Below are positions 1,722 through 57,421 of a stretch of 64,000 nucleotides of DNA, one piece after another. Position 1 is the stretch's first letter. Every line of letters starts with the position of its first letter. The position numbers and the translations under genes were made by a program. Location of the stretch: positions 26,481-90,480 of the forward strand of contig JAJRTJ010000001.1 in the NCBI GenBank assembly GCA_024278335.1. The letters are read 5' to 3'. Source of the stretch: an archaeon (lineage in GTDB: Archaea; Nanobdellota; Nanobdellia; Pacearchaeales; GW2011-AR1). The notes beneath the pieces were generated by a model. It made no database searches. It was given only the letters and a program-made list of their open reading frames with translations, and had not been told where the DNA came from.

Positions 1722-2315
1722 ATGGATAAGAGCTTAAAAGAAAAAATAAAATTTCTTGACCCAAAATTAAGAGACAAGATTGAAGGCATGTTTAATCATA
1801 TGTATGATTCAATTTCTCTTCTTTATGACGCTGCAACAAGAGATGAAAAAACTGGATTGTATAACACAAGATTTTTTGAAACAATTTTTTCTATGGAAAC
1901 TGAAAAAGCAAAAAGAGGACAGCAAAATCTTTCGTTGATTATCTTAGATATAGATTTTTTTAAAAAAATAAATGATAAATATGGGCATGTTCTTGCAGAT
2001 GATTTATTAAAACAACTTGCAAAAGTTATGGTAAAAAATGCAAGAACCGCAGATACTGTTACGAGATTTGGAGGAGAGGAATTTTTGATTCTTTTGCCGG
2101 AAACAAATCTTTCTCAAGCAAAAAGATTTGCAAAAAGATTGCAGAATGCAATTCATAAAGACCGGCTTTTGAAAAAATACAAAGTTACTGCTAGTGGAGG
2201 AATTACTCAATATAGAAAACAAAGAGACTCTAAAAAATCAATGAAGTCAAGAGCAGATAAAGCACTATACCAAGCCAAGAATTCTGGAAGAGATAGATTT
2301 ATTGTCTTGAAATAG
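1722..2315 (+). CDS. GGDEF-domain diguanylate cyclase (short N-terminal region plus catalytic domain)
   Basis: Active-site GGEEF in RFGGEEFLILLPET. An I-site RxxD (RTAD) lies 5 residues upstream. Also DIDFFKKINDKYGH and the C-terminal ALYQAKNSGRDR typical of GGDEF domains. Confidence 0.85.
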   Translation: MDKSLKEKIKFLDPKLRDKIEGMFNHMYDSISLLYDAATRDEKTGLYNTRFFETIFSMETEKAKRGQQNLSLIILDIDFFKKINDKYGHVLADDLLKQLAKVMVKNARTADTVTRFGGEEFLILLPETNLSQAKRFAKRLQNAIHKDRLLKKYKVTASGGITQYRKQRDSKKSMKSRADKALYQAKNSGRDRFIVLK

Positions 2316-6892: not shown

Positions 6893-7609
6893 CTAACTTT
6901 TTTTCGCAACTTTCCACAATAACTCAAAATATTTTTTATATCCTTCGCTGACTTCTGAATTTTTAATTACAATCACAAAAGGATTTTCTTTGCTCCACAA
7001 GATTATTGCAACTTTTTCTCCATAAATATTTACTGCAAGAGGGGAGGCGTATTTTTGAGGAAGAAATTTTATTTATGATAAAGGGATTTTGGGAGTTTTC
7101 TTTGCTCTTTGATTGAAGATTATTCTTGTTTTAATTTTTCTTTTTTTCCTCTTTTCATCAAACCATTTAAAATAAAATTGCAATACTTCATGAGCCAGAG
7201 GAGAAGCCCCTAAAATTAAAATTTCTTCCCCAGTTTCAATCTGGTCTTCAAAAACAGTTTTTAACCCAAGTTTCCCTCTGTAAAAGTTAGTCTCTTCTTT
7301 TTTCTTAACTTGCTCATAATTTAAAAGCATCTCCGGCATAATTTCTTCTAATTTTTTTTCTTTTTCTTTTATGATTTCCATAAATCTTTTTGGATTTGCT
7401 GCTTTGAAGATTTTTCTTCTATTTTTTAAAATATATCCTACTAATCCTTTTTTAATAAGCATTTCAATACTATCATAAACAGTTCTGCGATGAAGTCCTG
7501 TTTTTTGAGAAATAATTCCTGCTAAACATGGTCCTTGGGTGAGCAAGGCAGAGTAAACTTTTGCCTCGTTTTTTGTAAGACCAAATTCAATTAAAATCAC
7601 TTCTTTCAT
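6893..7609 (-). pseudogene. TrmB-family transcriptional regulator interrupted by an in-frame TAA (7073-7075); the homologous reading frame continues to TAG at 6893-6895
   Basis: N-terminal wHTH: FGLTKNEAKVYSALLTQGPCLAGIISQKTGLHRRTVYDSIEMLIKKGLV. After the stop the same frame reads IKFLPQKYASPLAVNIYGEKVAIILWSKENPFVIVIKNSEVSEGYKKYFELLWKVAKKS*. This looks like the end of a TrmB C-terminal domain, for a total of 238 codons. Confidence 0.65.
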
Positions 7610-13875: not shown

Positions 13876-13988
13876 CTTATTTTTAATCGTAATTTTTTTA
13901 CGTAATGTTTAATGAAAAAATGTATTTAAAAACCTTTCTATTTTCCAAAACAATATTAAAAAAGGGTTTTTATCGTCGGTAAAACCTT

Positions 13989-25638: not shown

Positions 25639-25845
25639 TTATACAACCACCCTATAATATGCATTTATTTTATCTTCTTCTTTTCTCTCTAATTTTATTA
25701 CATTCCCAATTTCACATTCCTCTGGAAGTGCCGGGTCAGTAGAGAGTATTTTTGGAAGCTGAGATTTTGAAATGTTTAGTTTTTTCAATAGTTCTTCAAT
25801 CTCTTTTTCTTTAAGCTTTACGTGTTTTGGTTGTAGAATGTGCAT
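25639..25845 (-). CDS. rpoH: RNA polymerase subunit H (Rpb5 C-terminal domain homolog)
   Basis: 68 aa with HILQPKH...LPKILSTDPALP...YYRVV, located immediately upstream of rpoB. Confidence 0.85.
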   Translation of the reverse strand: MHILQPKHVKLKEKEIEELLKKLNISKSQLPKILSTDPALPEECEIGNVIKLERKEEDKINAYYRVVV

Positions 25846-25960: not shown

Positions 25961-26079
25961 TGGCCCCGATGGGATTTGAACCCACGACACCTGGATTGCT
26001 TTGAGACATGTCTCAATGCAGGTGAGACGAATGTCAAGCCTAAAAGTCCAGTGCTCTAACCAGGCTGAGCTACGGAGCC
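25961..26079 (-). tRNA. tRNA-Lys (anticodon UUU) with a ~44-nt intron at 37/38
   Basis: Hand fold: GGCTCCG/CGGGGCC+A, D arm GCTC-AGCCTGGTTA-GAGC, anticodon stem CTGGA/TCCAG, loop CTTTTA|intron|A. A BHB-like helix CTTT/AAAG is flanked by 3-nt bulges. T arm GTGGG-TTCAAAT-CCCAT. A TATA-like ATATAAATA lies ~-33..-25. Confidence 0.9.
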
Positions 26080-44815: not shown

Positions 44816-45970
44816 TTACCTTCCACAGCTAGGACTTCCACAACTACCCCCACATCCCCTCCCGCACCTTCCTCCACAGCTTCCTGAAGGTGCTACCTTT
44901 TTGTTTGCCTCTTCTATTTGCAAATCTGTAACCGATCCATTACTTGTAACAATAAATATTCCAGGAATCATTCCCATCCAACAACTCCATGAAATTATCC
45001 CTTCTTTATTTGGAGTAAATTTAATCACTTGCTTTCCTTTTTTTATATTAAATTTTAATCCTAATTTTGGGACTTGAATTGCATTATTACATCTGGTTAT
45101 TTCATTTCCATAAATTTTCCATTTTACTGGAACTCCTTTTTTCAAAACAAATCTGTCTGGAGTCCAGCCATTTTTGTCAACTTTCATTTCAATAACTTGA
45201 TAACCCCCTGAATCAACGATAATGTTTTGAGAAATTTCTTCTGCCCCTTTTATTTTTTCAATAATACTTGTAATATCATAACCCCCCCCACTTAAAACAA
45301 GCCCTCTGTTCAGCATAATCAATCCTAAAATTAAAACAAAAACTGCTGTAATTTTTAAAATTCTTTTAGTTGCTTTACGACTAATTATTGAGGTTAAACT
45401 GCCGAATCCAATCAAAACAGGAAGGGTTCCAATTCCAAATACCCCTAAAGATAAAAATCCCCCCAAAAAACTTCCTGTTCCAGCCGCATATAAATATAAT
45501 GCCTGCAAGGGTCCGCATGCAATAAACAATCCACTGAGTATTCCAGTCATAAAAGGGGCTTTGTAAAAACCCTTGGCATTGTTGGTTGTTTTTGAAGCCC
45601 ATTTGTCCAATAACTTTGGATTAAATTGAAAATGTCTGAAAAAGCTAATACCCAGTATACTCATAGCAAAAGCAATCATAAATAATCCTGCAAAGATGGC
45701 AACCCCTGCACGAAGTCCAACACTAAAAGCAAATGCTCCCCCAATCAACCCAAAAATCCCCCCAATAACAGAATAAGAAATAACCTTTGCACCCCCATAG
45801 ACAAAGTGCTGTTTTAATCCTTTATGCCCCTGCTGAGCATTCTTGGTTGTATATCCAATTACAAATCCCCCGCACATTGAGATGCAGTGAAAACCTGTTA
45901 AAAGACCTGCAAAAAATAACAGGAATAGGGAAGTTTTTTGAGAGTCAAGATTAAATTCAGGAAATTTTAT
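44816..45970 (-). CDS. DsbD_2/TauE-like membrane domain fused to a cupredoxin-like domain with a Cys/Gly-rich tail; the reading frame is open up to the TAA of the upstream HMA gene
   Basis: The motif GLLTGFHCISMCGG spans the track start codon (45877). The C-terminal domain has ...ITRCNNAI...WSCWMGMIPGIFIV (Cupredoxin_1-like). The tail is SGSCGGRCGRGCGGSCGSPSCGR. The 31 codons upstream (IKFPEFNLDSQKTSLFLLFFAGLLTGFHCIS) contain no ATG/GTG/TTG. Confidence 0.65.
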   Translation of the reverse strand: MKFPEFNLDSQKTSLFLLFFAGLLTGFHCISMCGGFVIGYTTKNAQQGHKGLKQHFVYGGAKVISYSVIGGIFGLIGGAFAFSVGLRAGVAIFAGLFMIAFAMSILGISFFRHFQFNPKLLDKWASKTTNNAKGFYKAPFMTGILSGLFIACGPLQALYLYAAGTGSFLGGFLSLGVFGIGTLPVLIGFGSLTSIISRKATKRILKITAVFVLILGLIMLNRGLVLSGGGYDITSIIEKIKGAEEISQNIIVDSGGYQVIEMKVDKNGWTPDRFVLKKGVPVKWKIYGNEITRCNNAIQVPKLGLKFNIKKGKQVIKFTPNKEGIISWSCWMGMIPGIFIVTSNGSVTDLQIEEANKKVAPSGSCGGRCGRGCGGSCGSPSCGR

Positions 45971-46270
45971 TTATCCAGTTATTTTGTAAAGAATAAATAA
46001 AAGCAATAAGACACTAATTCCAAAAATAATCCAAGCAATAATGTTTTTTTTGTTTATCTCCTTATTTTTTTTATTTTCTACTCCATAACCTTCATTTTTT
46101 ATAATTTGTTCAATTTCTTTTGCAGAGATTTTTTCAGGATAAAATTCAATTTCTGCTGTTTCTTTTGCAAAATTAATGGAAATGTTCTTAACCTTGTCTT
46201 TTAGCGCATCTTCAATTTTTTGTGCACAGGAATTGCAAGTCATTCCCTGAATCATAAAACTCTTTTTCAT
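45971..46270 (-). CDS. Heavy-metal-associated (HMA) domain protein with C-terminal TM
   Basis: MIQGMTCNSCAQKIEDAL (GMTCxxC) followed by the TM segment IIAWIIFGISVLLLLFILY. Confidence 0.8.
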   Translation of the reverse strand: MKKSFMIQGMTCNSCAQKIEDALKDKVKNISINFAKETAEIEFYPEKISAKEIEQIIKNEGYGVENKKNKEINKKNIIAWIIFGISVLLLLFILYKITG

Positions 46271-49493: not shown

Positions 49494-50651
49494 CTAAGCC
49501 AACGGACTAATCTTCCGCAACCTCTCAACGGCTTTTTTAATTTTTTCAAGTGCATAATCAATCTCTTCTTTTGTTGTATATTTGCTGATTGAAATTCTTA
49601 CAGAAGAGTTTGCCTCTAAAGGAGTCTTACCCAAAGCAAGTAAAACATGGCTTGGTTCAAGATTGTGAGATGAGCACGCAGAACCAACAGAAGTAAAAAT
49701 TCCCTCAACATTCAAAAAGCTTCCAACAGATTCAGCTTCAATATTATTAAAACAAACATTAATGTTATTGCACAGTCTGTTTTTCCCATCTGCTCCATTT
49801 AGATTAACTTTAGGAATTTTCAAGAGTTCTTTAATAAAATAATCTCTTAACTTATACATAACTTTTACTTCTCTTGGAGAAGCAATTTTAATCGCTTTTG
49901 CAAAGCCAGCAATTCCAGCAACATTTTCCGTAGAGCTTCTCAACCCAAATTCATGCCCCCCGCCATGAAGCAACGGAGTAATACTAATCCCCTCCCTGAT
50001 ATACAAAGCTCCGACTCCTTTTGGTCCGTGAATCTTATGTGCATTTAAAGTCATTAAATCAATAAACTGCTTTTTTACATTAATTGCAACTTTTGTAAAA
50101 CTCTGGCAAGCATCTGTATGAAATAAAACTCCTTTTTCTCTGCAGATTTTGCCGATTTTCTCCAAATCCTGAATTGTCCCAATTTCATTGTTTCCGTGAA
50201 TAACAGAAACTAAAAAAGTCTTGTCTGTAATTGCAACCTCAATATCTTTAGGATTCACAAAACCATATGCATCAACATCAAGGTAAGTTATTTCTGCCCC
50301 CTGGCTTTCAATCCATTTGCAGGCATTTAAAATACAATCATGCTCAATCTTTGTTGTGATTATATGGTTCTTTCCTTTGTCTTTCATTTCAAAAAATAAT
50401 CCCTTAACTGCTGTGTTGTTGGCTTCTGTTCCAGAACCAGTAAAAATAATTTCCTTGTATTTTGCACCAATTGATTTAGCAACAATCTCCCGAGATTCTT
50501 CAATTGCTCTTCGCGCAGCCTCCCCCTTTAAATGAGTTGAAGAGGCATTTCCATATTCTTCTGTCTGATACTTCTCCATCACTTCTGCAACTTTTTCATC
50601 TACTTTTGTCGTTGCTGCATTATCTAAATATATTTCTTTCATCATACGCAA
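49494..50651 (-). CDS. nifS: Cysteine desulfurase (NifS/IscS class V aminotransferase)
   Basis: YLDNAATT, the HKIHGPKG PLP-lysine region, and the active-site loop SVGSACSS. Confidence 0.9.
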   Translation of the reverse strand: MRMMKEIYLDNAATTKVDEKVAEVMEKYQTEEYGNASSTHLKGEAARRAIEESREIVAKSIGAKYKEIIFTGSGTEANNTAVKGLFFEMKDKGKNHIITTKIEHDCILNACKWIESQGAEITYLDVDAYGFVNPKDIEVAITDKTFLVSVIHGNNEIGTIQDLEKIGKICREKGVLFHTDACQSFTKVAINVKKQFIDLMTLNAHKIHGPKGVGALYIREGISITPLLHGGGHEFGLRSSTENVAGIAGFAKAIKIASPREVKVMYKLRDYFIKELLKIPKVNLNGADGKNRLCNNINVCFNNIEAESVGSFLNVEGIFTSVGSACSSHNLEPSHVLLALGKTPLEANSSVRISISKYTTKEEIDYALEKIKKAVERLRKISPLA

Positions 50652-51127: not shown

Positions 51128-51204
51128 ATAAAACACTAAGAAATATCTTGTTTTTAAAATTGTTGATTAAGAACATTTAAAAATAAATAAACAACTAGAT
51201 TTAT

Positions 51205-56264: not shown

Positions 56265-56328
56265 AAAGATTCAAAAAAGAGATTAAAGAAAGAGTGTAAA
56301 TTATTCTAAATAATCAATTTTTTTAAAA

Positions 56329-56383
56329 CCCGTGGGATAGATGTTTTAGACATCAAATAGTTACCTAAAACCTCTATCCTGGG
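56329..56383 (+). terminator. Long imperfect hairpin downstream of rps27ae (terminator or small RNA)
   Basis: CCC(gtg)GGATAGA-t-GTTTTAG-[15-nt loop]-CTAAAAC-c-TCTATCC(t)GGG, about 17 bp in total. Confidence 0.35.
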
Positions 56384-56596
56384 TAAAAAGAGGTGATATA
56401 ATATAGACACTTTACTACTATTTAAACCTTTCGCTAATGTTACTCTTAAAAAATGACAGCAGTTTCCCCACTTTAAATGGTAACACTTGTTTATAAATAA
56501 ATAATTTTGTTAGTCACTACATTTTTATAAGGAGTAGTTACTATAAATAAAATTTCCCAACATATACTTTAAATAATCTTTAATTCTAATTGATTT

Positions 56597-57421
56597 ATGG
56601 AAAAAGAGGTTAAACATACTTCCCCTTCTGTAAATCAAGAGCAAGTTCATGACCTTTTATTTGGAAGAGAGCTCGGTTGGCAGGAAATGATTTATGATTT
56701 AATTAATACAGAGCAACTTGACCCTTGGGACATAAACATTACTCTATTAACAGATAAATATCTTGAAAAAATAGAACAGCTTGAAAAAGCAGATTTTTTT
56801 GTTTCCAGCAAAGTTCTCTTAGCGGCGTCGCTTCTTTTGAGAATTAAATCAGAGATTCTTTTAAACCGCTTTATTAAATCAATAGACGAGATACTCTTTG
56901 GAAAAGAGCAAGAGCCTAAAAAAACTTTTGAAAAGCTTGAACTTGAAGGGGAACTTCCAGAGCTTGTTCCAAAAAGCCCAATGCCTCGTTTTAAAAAAGT
57001 TACATTAGAAGAATTAATGGAAGCTTTAAATAAGGCAATTATCACAGAAAACAGGAGAATTAAAAAAGAAATCATAAACAAAAATGCTCTTCGGGAATCA
57101 GCTATTTCTTTGCCCAAGAAAACAATTAATATCAAAGATAAAATAAGGGAAATTCATCAAAAACTTTTAAATCACTTTGAATCAAATAATACAAAAAAAA
57201 TTTCCTACACTGAATTTATTGGAGAAGATAAAGAACAAAGAATTCTTGCATTTTATCCCCTGCTTCAGTTAGAGAATAATAATAAAATATGGCTTGACCA
57301 GCCAGAGCATTTTGAAGAAATAGATATCTGGCTTAAAAAAATATTTTTAAAGCATAATGAAGACCCTTTTGCTGATTTAAAAGAAGAGCTTGAAGAATTA
57401 GAACTTGAAAAAACTAAATAA
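56597..57421 (+). CDS. scpA: Segregation and condensation protein A (kleisin)
   Basis: ...MIYDLINTEQLDPWDINITLLTDKYLEKIEQL...FFVSSKVLLAASLLLRIKSEILL, typical of the ScpA N-terminus; 274 aa. Confidence 0.75.
   Translation: MEKEVKHTSPSVNQEQVHDLLFGRELGWQEMIYDLINTEQLDPWDINITLLTDKYLEKIEQLEKADFFVSSKVLLAASLLLRIKSEILLNRFIKSIDEILFGKEQEPKKTFEKLELEGELPELVPKSPMPRFKKVTLEELMEALNKAIITENRRIKKEIINKNALRESAISLPKKTINIKDKIREIHQKLLNHFESNNTKKISYTEFIGEDKEQRILAFYPLLQLENNNKIWLDQPEHFEEIDIWLKKIFLKHNEDPFADLKEELEELELEKTK

Follow-up and report, generated by a model that had tools for sequence, protein, structure and literature searches.

Two unrelated genes in the window, the whole 64-kb stretch of DNA that was analysed, are each interrupted by an in-frame TAA, and both interruptions are probably single-codon, genome-specific nonsense substitutions in otherwise intact genes. 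The first gene encodes a TrmB/TrmBL2-like regulator and the second a fusion protein with HMA, DsbD_2 and cupredoxin-like domains. Each stop would most simply have arisen by one G-to-T change, converting GAA (Glu) into TAA, and the changes may be genuine, being fixed or frequent in the population that was sampled, or they may stem from errors in the assembly consensus. Nonsense-interrupted genes as such are a known kind of feature. The point that speaks against plain nonsense is that both interrupted genes, and only these, carry the same 13-mer at the stop (p ~1e-5). If the plain nonsense model holds, this sharing would be a coincidence or a context preference of the mutation process, and it is left unexplained by the model itself.

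The window is AT-rich (GC ~30-35%), and the best relatives of its proteins come from DPANN archaeal MAGs labelled Pacearchaeota, Woesearchaeota and Nanoarchaeota. A six-frame scan with follow-up of the candidates left the TrmB and the HMA/DsbD_2 gene as the only truly interrupted ones; no other gene broken by a stop or a frameshift was detected among the ~75 genes of the window. Two further same-frame ORF pairs, at 49494 (cysteine desulfurase and a small redox protein) and at 25639 (RpoH and RpoB), turned out to be ordinary neighbours, and the five overlapping ORF pairs that were tested are separate genes, mostly with full-length Pfam domains. As no frameshift is present in ~75 genes, the assembly does not seem to be generally error-prone, which makes a simple sequencing error an uncomfortable explanation for the two stops.

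Two interrupted genes and their orthologs

The upstream part of the TrmB gene (7073-7609, minus strand) was taken from the ORF list and its translation and comprises 178 codons, starting with ATG at 7609 and ending in ...KTPKIPLS. It is closed by the premature TAA at 7075-7073, codon 179, which occupies a single sense-codon position. The same frame continues over 6893-7072 (minus strand) for 59 codons (IKFLPQKY...WKVAKKS) and ends with a TAG at 6895-6893. The uninterrupted frame of ~236 codons that is typical of the TrmB family is thus broken here at codon 179. The upstream part encodes a winged HTH, a long helix and the first half of a C-terminal PLD-like domain. Pfam TrmB (PF01978) matches residues 8-74 with an E-value of 7.7e-15 and 54.9 bits (cut-off 25.6), and a PDB profile match to TrmB 3qph was obtained as well (E 5.5e-09). 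The segment behind the stop is highly similar to homologs as well. The family assignment in the earlier note is borne out by the Pfam match, and translation of 7609-6893 (minus strand) together with the homolog alignment agrees with its description of an in-frame TAA followed by 59 homologous codons. In the annotation of the source genome the 178-aa product is listed as P0001 ('HTH protein'), which is 100% identical to the upstream part.

In the AlphaFold2 model of the merged TrmB protein (pLDDT 84) the HTH and a long helix (residues 74-104) are followed by one alpha/beta domain. Position 179 falls into the loop between strands 161-165 and 191-196 of this domain, and the segment behind the stop is predicted to contribute the final three strands (191-196, 199-204 and 211-215) and the closing helix (218-234). 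Foldseek matched the merged 238-residue product to full-length TrmBL2 (5bqt, E 6.7e-13) and the C-terminal domain to the PLD-fold nucleases Nuc, NucT and Zucchini; the PLD-like C-terminal architecture of TrmBL2 is reached only when the 59 codons behind the stop are counted. The model and the fold match support the earlier proposal that the premature TAA cuts through a single domain, with the final strands and the helix lying in the tail. According to the model, part of the core of the C-terminal domain would be missing from the 178-aa product: the regulator would stop short after residue 178, without three of its core strands and its final helix. TrmBL2 of Thermococcales (PDB 5bqt) consists of a winged HTH, a coiled coil and a PLD-like C-terminal domain, and the merged product matches it throughout. 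However, the identity is only ~20%, the gene described here is interrupted inside the C-terminal domain, and its function is a predicted one.

More than 1000 homologs of the merged TrmB sequence are present in the database, and their lengths were judged on the best 120. All but one of these (119 of 120) are 229-261 residues long and cover the sequence on either side of the stop; only P0001 does not. With 237 residues plus the stop position, the merged protein equals the homologs of 235-238 aa, and there is no gap at the stop among 26 aligned sequences. In most of these 26 homologs the TAA column holds Glu, in the context IPLS-E-I[KR][YF]LPQKY, and I-K-F behind the stop aligns with the conserved I-[KR]-[YF]. 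The comparison with intact homologs, which the earlier note had proposed as a check, consequently shows that one residue is replaced and not that four are extra.

The same was seen at the DNA level. A tblastn search of the merged TrmB sequence against 80 related loci from other DPANN genomes gave one unbroken match for each locus, and no in-frame stop was detected anywhere in the gene in any of the 80 orthologous TrmB loci. The residue at the stop site is Glu in 63 loci and Asp in 9, while Asn, Gln, Ser and Lys occur twice each. Among the 55 related loci that could be parsed for the codon at this site, GAA is found in 35, GAG in 10, GAT in 4 and AAA in 2, with four other codons present once each. 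Since GAA is the commonest codon at the site, a single G>T is enough to give TAA. In locus L026 the sequence reads AAC ATAAAATTTCTT where the TrmB gene of the window has TAA ATAAAATTTCTT, and the ATA-AAA-TTT-C behind the TrmB stop is therefore native coding sequence for I-K-[F/Y]-L. When 241 million metagenome records were searched with a degenerate DNA pattern that calls for a stop in place of the TrmB codon, no TrmB homolog was retrieved, the sole match being an unrelated ATPase gene, and metagenome contigs contained no match to the exact 29-mer in which the stop base was set to N. As far as these sequences tell, the stop is unique to the source genome among the relatives examined.

Some of the TrmBL2-like orthologs are located in MAGs labelled as bacterial, namely L031, L033, L049 and L059 (Liptonbacteria, Paceibacterota, Gammaproteobacteria and Patescibacteria). 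L030, labelled Pacearchaeota, is the same as L031 (Liptonbacteria) in sequence and coordinates at the TrmB site and at three same-frame ORF junctions. These four loci with bacterial labels are probably mis-binned or mislabelled DPANN contigs.

The second interrupted gene is also encoded on the minus strand. Its upstream part (45971-46270) has 99 codons for an HMA domain (PF00403, E 7.6e-14) and one transmembrane helix, the second premature TAA (45973-45971) forms the end of this 99-codon HMA ORF, and the in-frame continuation (44816-45970) has 384 codons plus the stop and encodes a DsbD_2 and a cupredoxin-like domain. Of the best 120 homologs, 119 are encoded as one fused protein (464-528 aa). 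In the alignment the TAA takes the place of a single residue in a variable loop; the homologs have Asn (62), Asp (19), Gly (14) or Glu (12) there, and no gap against them is present at the stop. The closest listed homolog reads GGA GGA ATT AAT ATC CCT, versus GGA TAA ATA AAA TTT CCT in the window. Both stops thus fit what is expected of a nonsense-mutated gene: GAA, the majority codon at the TrmB site, is one substitution away from TAA, and at the HMA site Glu is found in 12 homologs.

The first canonical start behind the second stop is an ATG 32 codons downstream, located within the DsbD_2 domain; the DsbD_2 profile match begins at residue 118 of the merged protein, ahead of this first Met. 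The deposited product P0121 (353 aa, 44816-45877, minus strand) begins at an internal Met; the first conserved helix, which carries the GFHC motif, is missing from it. Because its ATG falls inside the DsbD_2 profile match, P0121 is N-terminally truncated and represents a piece of the interrupted fusion, not a complete protein. The metal-transport protein would accordingly come in two pieces, an HMA fragment of 99 aa and a membrane part that is either untranslatable or N-terminally truncated.

Both downstream parts are fully open over 59 and 384 codons in DNA of 30% GC, which continued translation would predict likewise. As further lesions downstream of the stops are absent, we infer that the nonsense changes are recent; the decay expected of a disrupted gene is not seen, so that the change either happened recently or is not present in the reads. 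The ATA-AAA-TTT-C behind the stops (I-K-F-L/P) would in both cases be coding sequence that existed before the change. If the stops are plain nonsense changes, the consequence is a matter of annotation, as the deposited entries 'HTH protein' (178 aa) and 'DsbD_2 protein' (353 aa) then belong to single disrupted genes and would need to be marked accordingly. Homology continuing past a stop does not by itself show recoding.

The sequence shared by both stops

The 13-mer TAAATAAAATTTC is present three times in the window. The first copy (7075-7063, minus strand) begins at the TrmB stop and the second (45973-45961, minus strand) lies exactly at the HMA/DsbD_2 stop, which confirms the identity reported in the earlier note. 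A third copy, absent from that note, is intergenic (56544-56556, plus strand). With one more base on the upstream side the identity extends to the 14-mer ATAAATAAAATTTC. In the TrmB gene it covers 7063-7076 (minus strand) and consists of the last base of the Ser codon, TAA, ATA AAA TTT and C; the copy at the HMA/DsbD_2 stop covers 45961-45974 (minus strand). The third copy (56543-56556, plus strand) is located 41-54 nt upstream of the start of an ScpA-like gene at 56597; it interrupts no ORF, and the likely TTTAAATA promoter box of this gene follows downstream of it. Outside the 14-mer no similarity was found among the three copies, and there is no flanking repeat. A mobile element or a duplication as the source of the 14-mer was rejected, as there is no similarity past the 14 nt.

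The intergenic region with the third copy (56265-56596, plus strand), between an S27ae-like and the ScpA-like gene, is unusually long (~330 nt). It contains a possible hairpin (GGGATAGA...TCTATCC, near 56341-56385), and no Rfam match was obtained for the region even at an E-value of 0.1.

The number of copies of the 13-mer expected from dinucleotide shuffles is 0.08. This null model is too lenient because k-mers repeat in real AT-rich DNA; 20 different 14-mers are present at least three times in the window. The preferred null model used all 9,524 stop-creating single-base changes in the genes of the window and counted pairs that share the stop and the ten bases downstream. The probability that two random nonsense changes share the 13-mer is then ~1e-5, both for all substitutions and for G>T/C>A only. 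The shared context is more than chance easily gives, even if it is considered that the motif was chosen post hoc in the earlier note, and in agreement with that note it is not comfortably explained by chance. None of the normal stops in the window has the 13-mer, whereas both interrupted genes do.

The sharing of the context would be accounted for if one context-specific process made both stops by changing N-AAATAAAATTTC to TAAATAAAATTTC, with the genes being simply broken or mis-called. Such a process could be a hotspot of mutation, a short-patch conversion of templated or ectopic type, for which the copy at 56543 might be a donor, or a sequence-specific error in the consensus. This explanation, which we regard as possible but rather unlikely, overlaps with that of independent nonsense substitutions and differs from it only in why the context is common. 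It is favored by the identity of 13-14 nt at both stops, with its low probability for independent changes, and by the third identical 14-mer. In addition, no copy of GAAATAAAATTTC is left in the window, and in-frame N-ATA-AAA-TTT-C is found at three sites, which are the two TAA cases and a single intact site with AAA (Lys) as the first codon (1743-1755, plus strand, near the start of the gene at 1722-2315). Moreover, AGAAATAA becomes a tandem ATAA-ATAA by G>T. However, the three copies are alike only within the 14-mer, and 15 GAAATAAAA sites in the window, three GAAATAAAATT among them, retain the G. For the artefact form of the process, systematic base errors are unlikely without one frameshift in ~75 genes. 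Hotspots driven by methylation do not have G>T as their signature, and we know of no mechanism with specificity for the change from N-AAATAAAATTTC to TAAATAAAATTTC. Should the 13-nt identity recur elsewhere in the genome, this would indicate either a mutation or error process with sequence specificity, of relevance to metagenome assemblies, or an undescribed archaeal leaky-termination context.

In the related DPANN loci the 13-mer occurs with 3 copies per 497 kb and never at an interrupted gene. Likewise, no TAA-ATA-AAA junction was found among the long same-frame ORF pairs of these 497 kb.

Two other roles of the motif were considered and rejected. An internal promoter created by G>T, with ATAAATAA as TATA box, does not resemble the real promoters, which have TTTTAAA ~30 nt upstream of tRNAs and genes, and no start codon is located at a promoter-compatible distance downstream of either stop. 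For a restriction site or palindrome of the form GAAAT-N3-ATTTC the expected counts are very low, and GAA-N7-TTC is abundant with 52 sites.

Decoding of the in-frame TAA

The common context might also be read as a sign of leaky decoding, in which a near-cognate tRNA reads UAA or translation restarts at the adjacent AUA, giving functional full-length or two-piece proteins. The 13-mer would then be the signal, or a filter that lets such mutations survive. We consider this improbable. It is in line with the identical context at both interrupted genes, which is shared by no normal stop, and with the downstream parts being intact and strongly conserved. As there is no canonical start for 25 and 32 codons, production of these parts would depend on continued translation. 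The replacement of a single codon is a requirement of readthrough, and this part of the readthrough proposal in the earlier note stood; it is not specific to readthrough, because a plain nonsense mutation predicts the same.

The remaining expectations of the proposal that could be checked in the sequence did not hold. Conservation of the stop in orthologs, a mark of programmed readthrough, is absent: the stop is present in 0 of the 80 TrmB loci, the 119 listed HMA homologs are unbroken, and the metagenomes gave 0 true matches. The 10 nt downstream of the TrmB stop were pre-existing and are present in the stop-free L026, and the copies of the 13-mer in the 497 kb of related DPANN DNA are, as described above, never at an interrupted gene. 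Instead of a weak termination context, both stops have TAA-A, the commonest natural context in the window, where A follows 25 of the 43 natural TAA stops; UAA-A is thus the preferred terminator context of the genome. Folding of 115 nt around the stops gave z-scores against shuffles of +1.56 and -0.29, so that no stimulatory RNA structure better than shuffles was detected at either stop.

Restart is not favored by the sequences around the stops either. The first in-frame canonical start behind the TrmB stop is a TTG 25 codons downstream, and no ATG, GTG or TTG is in frame closer than 25 (TrmB) or 32 (DsbD_2) codons behind the stop. No GGAG-like Shine-Dalgarno sequence is present upstream of either stop, while GGAG-type sites are in use elsewhere in the genome. 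Only the near-cognate ATA adjoins each stop, which is not what is expected of coupled termination-reinitiation, and the stop-restart signal at ATA that had been suggested earlier is improbable, as neither a Shine-Dalgarno sequence nor a canonical start is nearby. A literature search on archaeal UAA readthrough and DPANN recoding gave nothing relevant. To our knowledge, neither UAA readthrough nor AUA restart is established in archaea.

A stricter form of leaky decoding states that UAA-AUA-AAA-UUU-C terminates inefficiently, by readthrough or by restart at AUA, so that nonsense mutations survive only there and both proteins are made. We give it little credence; if true, it would be the first context-dependent UAA recoding signal described in Archaea. 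Frameshifting or hopping at the A-rich motif was rejected, as the +1 frame meets a TAA at motif bases 5-7; moreover, no frame shift is needed because the upstream and downstream parts of the TrmB gene share one frame.

The window contains tRNAs for Ser-GCU, Trp-CCA and His-GUG and one intron-containing tRNA that is either Lys-UUU or Glu-UUC. Rfam, run over the window at a permissive threshold, returned these four tRNAs and nothing else. The intron-containing tRNA gene (25961-26079, minus strand; Rfam 57.4 bits) has a 44-nt intron and was missed by ARAGORN with default settings. In its intron mode ARAGORN called Glu(UUC), with the intron inside the anticodon, whereas Lys(UUU) follows from the canonical 37/38 position together with the Lys-like body. 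About 30 nt upstream of this tRNA gene there is a TATA-like ATATAAATA.

A reassignment of TAA to an amino acid in this organism is scarcely credible. Two in-frame TAA in conserved genes would fit it, but they are the only two in ~18,500 codons of the window, and TAA is the most used terminator of the 75 window ORFs (TAA 45, TGA 23, TAG 7), ending these 45 at positions that fit full-length genes. A tRNA with a UUA anticodon, the search for which had been recommended in the earlier note, was not found among the four tRNAs of the window.

Equally remote is the 12-nt in-frame insertion (TAA ATA AAA TTT) in both genes, e.g., as the footprint of a mobile element, which had been put forward earlier: it has the shared 13-mer itself in its favor and nothing else, but the merged proteins have no extra residues and equal their homologs in length around both sites (~236 aa for TrmB), which refutes the insertion model, I-K-F is aligned to the conserved I-[KR]-[YF], ATAAAATTTCTT is native in relatives and there is no flanking repeat.

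Comparison with known systems and genome background

Single-codon nonsense substitution, the preferred reading, places the two genes closest to ordinary nonsense-mutated genes, such as young pseudogenes or premature-stop alleles in MAGs. As in these, there is one lineage-specific stop, which a single base change separates from the consensus codon, and no recoding signal. In contrast to the ordinary case, two unrelated genes are affected here in an identical context of 13-14 nt, and no further decay is seen.

Programmed readthrough, as known from leaky viral UAG/UGA and from archaeal Sec/Pyl recoding, has in common with the present case the in-frame stop, a needed sequence in the same frame behind it and a context common to two genes. 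However, the stop described here is UAA in a normal terminator context, it is unconserved, and neither an RNA structure nor a dedicated tRNA was seen in the window.

Split genes of Nanoarchaeum equitans and other DPANN resemble the present case in that a protein is encoded in two pieces in a DPANN archaeon with a small genome. Known DPANN split genes have their own start codons, are usually located at separate loci and are split between domains. Here, in contrast, the pieces are contiguous, the second one has no start of its own, and the break falls within a domain or at the loop that precedes the first conserved helix.

Two features of the genome background were recorded along with the analysis. 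A (C/T)TTTTAAA(A/T) box recurs ~25-35 nt upstream of the 5' ends of tRNAs and of many start codons, with examples at 2325-2335, 51160-51170 and 13905-13915 of the window. The recurrent box suggests that leaders are short or absent, and it may serve as a usable promoter consensus for this genome. Between 8000 and 54000 (46 kb) nearly all genes are encoded on the minus strand, and GC and AT skew are strongly negative throughout this region; the sign of the skew flips near 54 kb, and the skew is also positive from ~2 to 6 kb of the window.
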